From NCBI GenBank assembly GCA_052055015.1, contig JBQJIT010000080.1: DNA of 33,104 bases. The stretch is one strand, 5' to 3'. A model generated the notes under the pieces. The model saw only the letters and a program-made list of their open reading frames with translations, did no database searches and had not been told where the DNA came from. Source of the stretch: Malassezia furfur (lineage: Eukaryota). Position 1 is the stretch's first letter. The number at the start of each line of letters is the position of its first letter. The translations under genes and the position numbers were made by a program. This document shows, one piece after another, positions 15,979 to 20,520 of the stretch.

Positions 15979-17526
15979 ATGTCGGAACACCATCTTCGCG
16001 TGCAGGTCGCGTCGTTCAATGCAGGCCAGCACCTCGAAGAAAATGCGCTCCCGGACTTTACTTCGTGGCTGATTCCTACGGTCCAGCAGGATCCATCGAG
16101 CGGCTACGCTGTCGCGGAAAAGACGGCGTCGCGACACCCGCAGGCGTTCGCGCTGGGACCACGCGATGCGCCAGATGTCTACGCGGTGGGCTTCCAGGAG
16201 TTTGCCCTGCTGCCGCACGGCCTCGCCGGGTTCACCGAGTCGATGCGTACTGCGATCGATCGCGAGATTCGGCGCACCGTGCGCCTGCACCAGGCGACCG
16301 TCCGTCCCGACCGCATGTACGACCCGTTGGAGCTCGGCGGTGGACCGGAGAACTATGCACGCATCGCCGAGATCGTACATGGCGGCATGGTCCTGTTTGT
16401 GTATGCGCGTGAGCGCCCGTCGCGCGAGGCCGCCAACCTGCCGAGCGCCGCCGAGCGTGTCAAGGAAGTGCGCATGGCCACGGTGGGGACCGGCATCTTC
16501 AACCTGATGGGAAACAAGGGCGCCGTGGGTGCACGCGTGACGCTTGCGCCGCTCCATGCAGGTGGCGAGGACGAGGTACTGACGTTCGTATGCGCGCATC
16601 TCGCCGCGCACGACCACAACGTCGAGCGCCGCAACCGCGACTGGCAAAACATTGTGCAGCGCCTCGTGTTTAGTCCGGACGATCTCGGCTACGTGCCCAA
16701 CGTGGTGCCCTCGACCATGCCCGGCGACGTGAAGGAAACCATGGGCCAGATCCACAGCGTACCCACGAAGCCCGCGTCGCAGCACCGGACCAAGGCGCTG
16801 GATTCGAACGAATACTCAGTGTACGACACACACCATCTCTTCGTCCTGGGCGACCTCAACTATCGTATCGGTACGGGCGTCCCTGGCGCACCGCCGTCGG
16901 GTGGACCCGTGTCGCGCAACACGTATCCACCGATGAAGCGCTCCGATGTCAAGATGCTTGCCCAGTCGAAAAACCCCAAGCGCTGGGCCTGGCTTCTGCC
17001 CTACGACCAGCTGGCGCTGCAGCATGCCGTGTCGCCGCCGCGTGCGTTCCAGTCGCTATACATCCCGGACCTGAGTGTGTACAACCTCCCACCTACCTAC
17101 AAATACAAGGTCCCCAAGACGCCCGCAGATACTCAGGACGTCTTGAGCAAGAAGCGCGTGCCGGGCTGGCCAGACCGCATCCTGTGGAGCGAGCCGCAGA
17201 GCGTGGGGTGCGAGCTGTACCGCAGCCTGATGGAGTACCGCGTGTCGGACCACAAGCCGATCACGGCGATTCTCACAGTGCCGTCGACGCGTGCGCGTAC
17301 CTTCCTTGCGGCGCCCTACCCCATCGACCCTGCGTGGCGTACGATGCAGTTCCGTGGTCGTTGGCTCGACCGCATCATCGGCTACCTCTGGTCGCTGTTG
17401 CTGCTGTTCGGCAACGGTAGCCTGCCGCTCGCCGCGATCGAGGTCGCCCTGCTTGCGATTCTTGGCGCATGGTGGGTTAGTGGGCACCCGATCCCGCTGA
17501 TCCGTCCGAACGGCGCCGCCATCTAG
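15979..17526 (+). CDS. Inositol polyphosphate 5-phosphatase with C-terminal membrane anchor (Inp54-like)
   Basis: GFQE, MGNKGAV, FVCAHLAAH, GDLNYR, PPTYKY, PGWPDRIL and SDHKPI, then a hydrophobic C-terminus. Intronless. Confidence 0.9.
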   Translation: MSEHHLRVQVASFNAGQHLEENALPDFTSWLIPTVQQDPSSGYAVAEKTASRHPQAFALGPRDAPDVYAVGFQEFALLPHGLAGFTESMRTAIDREIRRTVRLHQATVRPDRMYDPLELGGGPENYARIAEIVHGGMVLFVYARERPSREAANLPSAAERVKEVRMATVGTGIFNLMGNKGAVGARVTLAPLHAGGEDEVLTFVCAHLAAHDHNVERRNRDWQNIVQRLVFSPDDLGYVPNVVPSTMPGDVKETMGQIHSVPTKPASQHRTKALDSNEYSVYDTHHLFVLGDLNYRIGTGVPGAPPSGGPVSRNTYPPMKRSDVKMLAQSKNPKRWAWLLPYDQLALQHAVSPPRAFQSLYIPDLSVYNLPPTYKYKVPKTPADTQDVLSKKRVPGWPDRILWSEPQSVGCELYRSLMEYRVSDHKPITAILTVPSTRARTFLAAPYPIDPAWRTMQFRGRWLDRIIGYLWSLLLLFGNGSLPLAAIEVALLAILGAWWVSGHPIPLIRPNGAAI

Positions 17527-18230: not shown

Positions 18231-18290
18231 CGTGGTCTTAGTCAGCCAAAAGACCCTACATACGCGGGGTCCCGCTTTCCTTAAGGGACC

Positions 18291-19720
18291 ATGTCGCACA
18301 TTGAGCAGGAGATCGAGAGCCATCACACGTACAGTGCGCAGGATGACGAAGGCGTTGGTCGTTACTCGGCTTACGCCATGCGCTTGCGTACGCTGCTGAC
18401 GTCGAGCTCGCGGTACATTGCCTACTCGTCCGATGTGGGGGAAGCCTTCCGGCCCCTGACCCGACCCGGTGTGGTCACGGCCGCGTACGCCGTGAGTTGG
18501 GCGTACATCTTTACGGATGTTGGCTACACATGCTACAAGTCGTGTGAGGGTCGCGACCTGTCGACACGCCAGGCCAAGGAGGACATCTCGTGGATCGCGT
18601 CGCGTCGCTTCACGTTCCAGCTCCTGTCGAGGTACGTGCATTCCCACTAACTTCTCTAGTCTGCTGCTGCGTACGTTCTGCAAAGTGGTCCTACTTACCT
18701 CGCAGCCGCTGTCACGATTCACAGCGTGGTCAAGTACTCTGCGCCGGTCTTTGCCCGGTCGCGTTTCCTGCGCGTGCGCAGTGTCGGCCCAACGGTCGCC
18801 GGTCTGCTGACTGTGCCGCTTTTGGTGCGTTTGAGATACACTAACATGTACAGCCCATAATCTTTGATGAGCCGGTCGAGATCGGCGTGGACCACGCGTT
18901 CGATCTGCTCGAGCTCAAGGTTCAGGCCTACTATGGGAACCGCGAGGCCCAAAAAGTGCTCGACGAGAAGATGGCGCGGCTGAAGACGAAGCTCGGCTTT
19001 GATGTTAGCTCGAGCCCCAAGCCGCCGGCGCTGGCTCCGGCACCGGCACCGGCCAAGCGCCCGGTCGACGCCATCGGTTCGAACCCCCCACCGGAGTTGT
19101 CGTCGAACACTTCGACGGCCGCCCAGCTTGCGGTGCTGGGCGTCGGTGTGGATCTCCTGTACCTTCCTCGGATGCGCAGCCTCGTCTCGCGGCATGCTCA
19201 GCGGCTCTGCAGCACACCGTGGCGCGGTGCCTTCTCCCAGGCGCCGCGTATTGCGATGCCGCAGCGCCAAGACAGCCCGCCCTCTACCGAGTCGGTCCTT
19301 GCGCAGGCGGCGCAACACTTTGCGCGCCGGACGCTCTCCAAGTCCGAGTCGGCTGTCTGGGCAGACGTTGCACCGGGCATGACGCACGAGGACCGCCTGC
19401 GCTTCCTTGCGACGAGGTGAGCTCTGCCAAGTGCGCAGCGGCGCGTTCGTTCGTTACTAACCGCGTCTAGATGGGCATGCAAGGAAGCCACATACAAGGC
19501 AGTGTATCCGCATATCCAGCTCCGCGCACGCGACATCATTATGGAACGGGGCCACACCCCGCTCACCGTCAAGCCGCGCCTGCGCCTTGACCCTGAGGTA
19601 CAGTACACGGGGGCCGATGGACGTTTGGCGAATGCGCTTGTCGAGCAACTACGCCTGCACCTAAGCGTATCGCACGATGGCGACTACGTCATAGCTTCTG
19701 TACTGGCAGAAACACCGTGA
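18291..19720 (+). CDS. MTP18/MTFP1 fused in frame to an AcpS/Ppt2-type 4'-phosphopantetheinyl transferase, about 427 aa
   Basis: MTP18: RYIAYSSDVGEAFRPL...AYAVSWAYIFTDV...FQLLS|SLLL|PAVTIHSVVK...PLL|PIIFDEPVE. PPTase: LGVGVDLL, FARRTL, FLATR|WACKEATYKA and LSVSHDGDYVIA. Introns 18632-18659, 18671-18705, 18825-18853 and 19417-19470; spliced length 1284 nt with no internal stop. Confidence 0.85.
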
Positions 19721-19769: not shown

Positions 19770-20133
19770 CTAAGCAGAAGCATGCTTCTGGATAGCGTTC
19801 TGGGGTTAGTATGCGAGCCTGGACCAATGTACGTACTTGGAGCTTGGTCAAGTCGGCACCGACAACCGTCTCGATCTTCTCGCCATTCTTGAAGAAGACA
19901 AAGGTGGGCATCGCACGGATGCCGACCTCCTGGGCAATCTGGCTCTGCTCGTCCACGTCGACCTTGTAGAAGCCGAGCGTCTCGCCAGCCTTGGTGTCCG
20001 AAATCTTCTCGAAGACCGGGCCGATCATCTTGCAGGGGCCACACCAGGTGGCCCAGAAGTCGATGACGACGATCTTGTCACCACCGGTCACTTCCTTGAA
20101 CTGGTCGTACGACGAAATCACTTGCACACCCAT
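19770..20133 (-). CDS. TRX1: Thioredoxin (Mala s 13 allergen homologue)
   Basis: IDFWATWCGPCK active site and IRAMPTF. One 37-nt intron with TACTAAC, then NAIQKHASA*. Confidence 0.95.
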
Positions 20134-20520
20134 GATTGATTCGGGACGAAGATAGGATCCTCGCCACCCCGGCGAGCTTTATAGCCCAGGCTCAGCTGCA
20201 CAATGCTGATGTAATCACTGTGCACGGAACATCGATCACTGCGCACGCGCCACATCGAAGTTTTTTTACCCCGGGGAATCTCCGCAAACACCGTAGGTGC
20301 CCCACGGAGTGGCAGCTCGTACGATGGCGCCATTTGTCTTGGGCGAAATTTGCGCTGAGGCGATTAGCACCGATGACGGGATCATCGAAATTCACGCAGG
20401 TTCGTCCCCTGGAGCGTGTGGCTTAGGGGCTTCGATTCGCCATCCACCGCGTGCCAAGCCTTAGGTACCTCACCGTATTGCTATCAGATAATCCACAGCG
20501 TCTACAATTCCAACCCCCAC

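Follow-up and report, generated by a model that had tools for sequence, protein, structure and literature searches.

An in-frame fusion of MTP18/MTFP1 with a putative holo-ACP synthase in Malassezia furfur and related fungi

Mitochondrial fission process protein 1 (MTFP1, family MTP18, PF10558) has been studied for mitochondrial fission, the control of fusion, inner-membrane integrity and heart failure. The animal protein is about 166 amino acids (aa) long without an enzymatic domain, and we know of no biochemical activity assigned to it. The mitochondrial phosphopantetheinyl transferase (PPTase) of S. cerevisiae is Ppt2, and a PPTase domain is also found at the C-terminus of the alpha subunit of fungal fatty acid synthase (FAS). 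A report on the mouse heart presents MTFP1 as an inner-membrane protein (PMC9636241), and an account of fungal mitochondrial tandem precursors treats them as a known class, with Arg5,6, Atp25, Etp1 and Rsm22-Cox11 as members (PMC8734313). Here we describe a gene of Malassezia furfur in which an MTP18 domain is followed, in the same reading frame, by a putative PPTase of the AcpS type. The gene lies in a stretch of 33,104 nucleotides (assembly GCA_052055015.1, contig JBQJIT010000080.1), which we call the window.

The gene has five exons on the plus strand and, after removal of four introns, encodes a product of 427 aa (Table 1). All four introns are of the GT..AG type and three have a CTAAC branch motif. 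A stop codon stands directly 5′ of the ATG at 18291, and the stop-to-stop open reading frame (ORF) starts at 18285. The spliced model reproduces the start, stop, exon count and four canonical introns of the original prediction, which had been made from the letters of the DNA.

The MTP18-PPTase fusion is a genuine in-frame fusion within a single gene. The junction lies inside exon 4, and the fusion is therefore independent of any guess about splicing. In one frame of this exon follow FDEPVE (18863-18880), the linker SSSPKPP...AKRP (19007-19063) and GVGVD (19139-19153); this frame is free of stops, whereas the other two have three and four. Exon 5 continues with WACKEATYKA (19472-19501) and SVSHDGDY (19664-19687). 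The GC content at third codon positions (GC3) is 0.79 in the linker, compared with 0.65-0.83 in four flanking coding segments.

Residues 1-426 of the spliced product match residues 1-426 of a deposited protein of Malassezia yamatoensis (P0001, MYAM1_000989, 427 aa) with 70% identity (local BLASTP). When P0001 was used to search the window (tblastn), 18291-19720 was the sole locus matched. The window was scored against Pfam exon by exon, and whole-protein scores are those of P0001. There, both domains exceed the cut-off, which is 25 bits for each: MTP18 with 172.8 bits (residues 24-167, profile positions 4-169 of 171) and ACPS with 31.9 bits (residues 308-373). In the window, exon 1 alone matches MTP18 (E 1.3e-28, 100.5 bits, profile positions 4-69 of 171), exon 5 alone scores 15.3 bits for ACPS, which is under the cut-off, and exon 4 alone has no Pfam match. 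The part encoded by exon 5 also aligns to AcpS in a profile search (see below). The earlier claim that a complete MTP18 runs without a stop, through a junction inside one exon, into an AcpS-type PPTase has thus held up, and the Pfam scan proposed along with it gave both families on the ortholog.

The same arrangement is found in other assemblies. The motifs at the end of MTP18 and at the start of AcpS (FDxPVE...LGxGxD) occur in one frame in 15 sequences, separated by a spacer of 57-88 aa. The set consists of the window, models from six named species (five of Malassezia, and Tilletiaria anomala) and eight database ORFs from metagenome and run assemblies; a further ORF, P0016, is not counted, its start being downstream of the first motif. 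The named models are those of M. yamatoensis, M. caprae (401 aa), M. nana (400 aa), M. pachydermatis (P0187, 355 aa), M. brasiliensis (P0186, 311 aa) and T. anomala (P0009, 397 aa). Set against the alignment, the last three look mis-annotated: P0187 lacks an insertion in the PPTase, which is apparently spliced out, P0186 is truncated and lacks exon 5 and two internal segments, and P0009 stops at the conserved intron after ...WLALR. In the ORFs P0004, P0005 and P0007, the MTP18 domain, the spacer and the N-terminal half of the PPTase form one intron-free frame, which ends where the last intron starts. P0004 and P0005 represent clusters, found in metagenome and run assemblies, with 170 and 148 members, and the open frame is therefore not the error of one assembly. 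Two neighbor genes could in principle have been joined by chance, be it by an error in the assembly, by a faulty splice model or in a pseudogene that is decaying, and the visible imperfections of several deposited models (P0186, P0187, P0009) would fit such an origin. We consider it highly improbable: the junction is within a stop-free single exon, the frame is the same in independent assemblies from many lineages, nothing is lost from the catalytic motifs, and the GC3 of the linker resembles that of coding sequence.

Some details of the gene model should be added. Reading 18632-18705 as one single intron was rejected, as it breaks the frame. The residues that come from the micro-exon (SLLLP) stand in one uninterrupted run in M. 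yamatoensis, as they do in the unspliced ORFs P0004, P0005 and P0007. These three Malassezia-type ORFs have the MTP18 part free of introns, as against a micro-exon between introns of 28 and 35 nt here, and the intron content of the gene hence varies strongly among related lineages. At the site of intron 4 (after ...LATR), 12 of the 21 aligned database sequences end or run off. Retention of intron 3 would bring a TAA (18858-18860) into frame and leave an MTP18-only product that lacks the nearly invariant FDxPVE; an ENA ORF of a relative (P0008) reads into the same intron. The window has no Rfam matches.

The N-terminal part shares with animal MTFP1 a full MTP18 domain, as judged from the fungal ortholog. 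It differs in that the fungal family adds a helical C-terminal extension, which is also present in unfused Ustilaginomycotina, and the PPTase. The D162 and E166 of FDxPVE are nearly invariant in 64 sequences, and hydrophobic segments are found at about residues 99-134 and 138-169. In an AlphaFold2 (AF2) model of the ortholog, the predicted local distance difference test (pLDDT) is about 87-98 over residues 41-200.

The C-terminal domain is a diverged group-I (AcpS/Ppt2-like) PPTase with intact catalytic residues. The original prediction had named GVD, WACKEA and SVSHDGDY; all are preserved, and GVGVD, CKEATYK and SVSHDGDY of the window align to the motifs of AcpS. Following the AcpS literature, we take the Mg/CoA-binding Asp of GxD and the Glu/Lys of the KEAxxK helix to be the catalytic residues. 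In a profile search, the fused family hits solved bacterial AcpS (3qmn, E 5.7e-12). Against 5vbx the match falls into two stretches, covering AcpS residues 1-28 and 18-125, in which LGxGxD and RxAxKEAxxKA line up with their counterparts; the length of AcpS is covered once. Between the two stretches, from the first strand/helix to the AAQHFARR helix, there is an insertion of about 27 profile columns. The family TIGR00556 (cut-off 45.35) is reached by two of four full-length orthologs (P0001 with 51.1 and P0166 with 47.9), the other two remaining below it (P0185 with 42.3 and P0187 with 42.6). None of the four reaches the cut-off of the bacterial equivalog TIGR00516 (59.8; best score 47.1 bits); the domain is a eukaryotic relative that has diverged, not an equivalog of the bacterial type. 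In feature space, residues 236-427 lie nearest to Atlas clusters of eukaryotic ACPS proteins that stand alone, have 156-176 aa and come mostly from Ascomycota (top score 0.92, with 200 of 256 features shared).

The domain is also predicted to form a trimer. A three-copy model of P0001 residues 243-427 scored 0.85 compared with 0.01 for the best control, its runs agreeing in at least 90% of the contacts and the partners having a pLDDT of at least 78. The interface consists of residues 250-263, 350-358 and 408-425, which are the segments bearing the motifs. The mark against which the score is read was reached by 21 of 30 solved one-chain pairs and by none of 23 single chains, and is rough for three copies; it was set on microbes, and among eukaryotes it was reached by 17 of 29, but by one of seven without an older solved relative. 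As AcpS trimers have already been solved, the pass shows likeness only and may reflect memory.

Its client would be the mitochondrion's own acyl carrier protein (ACP), and the domain would be the Ppt2 equivalent of these fungi. In common with Ppt2 and the stand-alone fungal PPTases (PF01648), it has a small AcpS-like core with GxD, KEAxxKA and S-x-S-H-D and a predicted trimer. In contrast to them, it is the C-terminal domain of a membrane protein of 427 aa and has an insertion after the first helix, and its orthology to Ppt2 is presumptive. What the gene has in common with the FAS alpha subunit is that, in fungi, an AcpS-type PPTase is joined to a second protein. In FAS, that protein is the client megasynthase itself, whereas here it is a membrane-morphology protein without a carrier domain.

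How might the fused protein work? We think it probable that the single gene yields one membrane-tethered holo-ACP synthase of 427 residues. The N-terminal MTFP1/MTP18 domain would insert into the mitochondrial inner membrane. It would be followed by the helical extension and a low-complexity spacer of 40-90 residues, carrying a complete group-I PPTase. The PPTase would most likely assemble as the usual AcpS trimer and, from its tether, convert apo- to holo-mitochondrial ACP at the membrane. That the protein stays uncleaved, and which side of the membrane the enzyme occupies, are points that we infer. We favor the intact tethered enzyme because the features of tandem precursors cleaved by MPP, the processing peptidase of mitochondria, appear to be missing.

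Several points weigh against such an enzyme. AF2 gave for the whole ortholog a model (mean pLDDT 76.5) whose PPTase part is poorly folded, mostly helical and unlike AcpS, and a Foldseek search of this model against the PDB gave no matches at E <= 0.001; the model was used here for the MTP18 helices and the disorder of the spacer only. It would also be unusual for a trimeric enzyme to sit on a membrane anchor of the multi-pass kind. Next is the topology. In an alignment of 64 rows (A2, with 47-55 rows per segment), the net charge is +4.1 for the helix at 22-43, +3.3 for the loop that joins hydrophobic helices two and three and -3.2 for the tail after the third. Read by the positive-inside rule, which is weak for imported inner-membrane proteins, these counts would put the C-terminal side, and with it the PPTase, into the intermembrane space. 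Our literature search found no published statement on the side that the C-terminus of MTFP1 faces. In conflict with the charge-based topology, ACP priming in mammals is described as an event of the matrix (PMC12671336).

The remaining points concern the linker, where, amid otherwise variable sequence, a short motif, R-x-V-D-x-I-G-S/T, recurs in full or nearly so in seven lineages. It is complete in the window and in P0016, and near matches, with one or two positions changed or missing, are found in P0001, P0186, P0020, P0057 and P0154. The motif could be a processing or docking site. A Met, moreover, stands 20-31 residues past FDxPVE in all nine full spacers of the Malassezia type. The motif and the Met make an internal start or a protease other than MPP possible.

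A polyprotein cleaved after import had in fact been suggested in the original prediction. On this reading, one precursor would be cut in the spacer, releasing a free MTFP1 and a soluble Ppt2-like enzyme. The tandem precursors of fungi (PMC8734313) provide a precedent, and like them the present gene puts two unrelated mitochondrial functions into one ORF. The spacer is long, of low complexity and poorly modeled (AF2 pLDDT 36-41 for residues 221-250 of the ortholog), and the linker motif is conserved in several lineages. It also agrees with release that the nearest clusters are stand-alone fungal ACPS of 156-176 aa and that AcpS works as a trimer. According to Friedl et al. (2020; PMC8734313), internal cleavage by MPP requires a junction that resembles an internal matrix-targeting signal (iMTS-like) and depends on a strong presequence at the N-terminus. 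Here, by contrast, charge counts give no N-terminal presequence: over their first 30 residues, all six full-length proteins are net acidic, with K+R to D+E counts of 1/6, 1/6, 2/7, 2/7, 3/5 and 2/3. Nor does the junction look presequence-like, the spacers having a net charge of -5 to +1 and at least eight D/E in 15 of 15. The window does have a basic stretch and KRP/VD in its spacer, which are not conserved in the alignment, and positions -2 and -3 ahead of the PPTase start show no conserved Arg. Finally, the first moiety is a multi-pass membrane protein, lacking the presequence that MPP scanning is reported to need in that same study. Cleavage by MPP thus appears unlikely from the acidic N-terminus and the acidic to neutral spacer, the features laid out by Friedl et al. 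(2020) were not seen, and we give the polyprotein as a whole a minor chance.

The gene might, alternatively, make two products. An internal promoter or start (Met197, ATG 18971) would give a stand-alone PPTase, alongside the fusion or in its place, or retention of intron 3 an MTP18-only protein. The regular position of the Met in the Malassezia-type spacers suits the first route, as does the basic sequence that Met197 opens in the window (MARLKTKLGF...), and the TAA brought into frame by intron 3 suits the second. But the Met is absent from three of the 15 spacers (P0057, P0026 and P0009 of Tilletiaria), and the residues after it are acidic in most Malassezia lineages and not presequence-like. 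The product of intron 3 retention would lose the nearly invariant D162 and E166, and in all lineages seen the frame is kept open from one domain to the other. We rate two products as still more doubtful than cleavage after import.

The fusion also invites a wider reading, of the Rosetta stone kind, to which we attach little confidence. The MTFP1 family would work physically with the mitochondrial ACP/4′-phosphopantetheine system, organizing a site of ACP priming at the inner membrane. Primed ACP would there be handed to mitochondrial fatty acid synthesis (mtFAS), lipoylation and the LYR-dependent assembly of respiratory complexes, and the effects on fission and the inner membrane in animals would lie downstream. 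A bolder variant applies if the charge-based topology is right, in which the PPTase would be on the side of the intermembrane space and act on some other client.

The fusion has a limited distribution. An exhaustive search of representatives with E <= 0.001 gave 1084 proteins, and most of the 150 listed cover only residues 1 to about 200 of the query, that is, MTP18. By Pfam, applied to the protein or to a cluster representative, MTP18 occurs without the PPTase in Ustilago (P0010), Thecaphora frezii (P0011), Tilletia horrida (P0013), Sympodiomycopsis kandeliae (P0014), Penicillium manginii (P0031) and the clusters of Tilletiopsis washingtonensis (P0012) and Microstroma glucosiphilum (P0015). 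Brettanomyces nanus and Basidiobolus meristosporus were judged to be unfused from length only (202 and 215 aa), and all unfused states rest on deposited gene models, some of them possibly truncated. The original prediction proposed to look for the same architecture in other Malassezia and in Ustilaginomycotina; it is present in the former and in T. anomala, but not in the models from Ustilago, Thecaphora, Tilletia, Tilletiopsis, Microstroma and Sympodiomycopsis. The fusion would thus be patchy within Ustilaginomycotina, and a single origin with later losses or several independent origins are both possible. Word-indexed protein searches (six, four and two matches) did not find a stand-alone Ppt2 of Ustilaginomycotina, which is no evidence of its absence. 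From 585 pattern matches in metagenomes, the only confirmed locus (L001) was rejected; it has a chance match to AAQHFARR in an unrelated ORF, on a contig without an MTP18 or a PPTase gene.

A long, charged helical tail follows FDxPVE in MTP18 proteins of Ustilaginomycotina, whether fused or not (P0169, P0015, P0009), and in Tilletiaria the tail has weak matches to Phasin and DUF883. It seems that the PPTase was added to an MTFP1 that already had an extension. Other architectures among the matches are EF-hand with MTP18 (355 aa, P0068) and WD40-like with MTP18 (474 aa, P0092), which are candidates and possibly artefacts of gene models.

The surroundings of the gene are compact (Table 1). The ATG of the divergent ORF upstream is 60 bp from that of the fusion gene, so that a very short bidirectional promoter is probably common to both. 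On the other side, the 3′-end of the convergent ORF is about 50-100 bp from the stop of the fusion gene. No genes related to ACP or fatty acid synthesis were seen in the neighborhood.

Table 1. Coordinates of the fusion gene, its parts and the neighboring open reading frames in the window
Feature	Position	Strand	Remarks
Exo_endo_phos2 phosphatase-family ORF	15979-17523	+	further upstream
ORF, 235 aa	17526-18230	-	no Pfam family at E <= 0.001
Fusion gene	18291-19720	+	five exons
Exon 1	18291-18631	+	ATG and N-terminal two thirds of MTP18
MTP18/MTFP1 domain	18360-18883	+	residues 24-167 of spliced product
Intron 1	18632-18659	+	28 nt, GT..AG, CTAAC
Exon 2	18660-18670	+	11-nt micro-exon completing ...SSLLLP...; required for frame
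Intron 2	18671-18705	+	35 nt, GT..AG
Exon 3	18706-18824	+	MTP18 helices (AVTIHS...GPTVAGLLTVPLL)
Intron 3	18825-18853	+	29 nt, GT..AG, CTAAC
Exon 4 (junction exon)	18854-19416	+	MTP18 end, helical extension, linker, N-terminal half of putative PPTase
Helical extension	18884-18997	+	within exon 4
Pro/Ala/Ser linker	18998-19120	+	within exon 4
Linker motif R-x-V-D-x-I-G-S/T	19058-19081	+	from alignments
Putative AcpS-type PPTase domain	19121-19717	+	residues 247-427, spliced; contains insertion
Intron 4	19417-19470	+	54 nt, GT..AG, CTAAC; directly after ...LATR
Exon 5	19471-19720	+	C-terminal half of putative PPTase; stop TGA 19718-19720
Convergent ORF	19770-20180	-	WCGPC thioredoxin-like motif, read by eye

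The architecture is deposited but undescribed, under a name that covers MTFP1 only: the entries in NCBI and UniRef read "hypothetical protein" or "Mitochondrial fission process protein 1". Our literature search, in which coverage of subscription journals was thin, found no paper describing an MTP18-PPTase fusion. The original prediction, that no description of the fusion was known, thus stands as regards papers, with the qualification that five Malassezia models and one Tilletiaria model had already been deposited.

In closing, the weight of the finding depends on what the fusion is for. If it merely secures co-expression, it is a minor point of annotation: the deposited models need renaming, and several need repair. 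If the tethered enzyme is real, it would show that a mitochondrial PPTase tethered to a membrane occurs in nature. To our knowledge, the Malassezia skin yeasts are without a cytosolic FAS. The original prediction mentioned this lack beside the fusion; a link between the two is weakened by the fused gene of T. anomala, which is a non-Malassezia yeast. In Malassezia, the fusion may be the sole AcpS-type PPTase; lipoylation and respiration would then hinge on this one point. The main interest, in our view, is the hint at the function of MTFP1: its fusion to a putative holo-ACP synthase provides a testable hypothesis, that of a functional or spatial link of MTFP1 to mitochondrial ACP and mtFAS.

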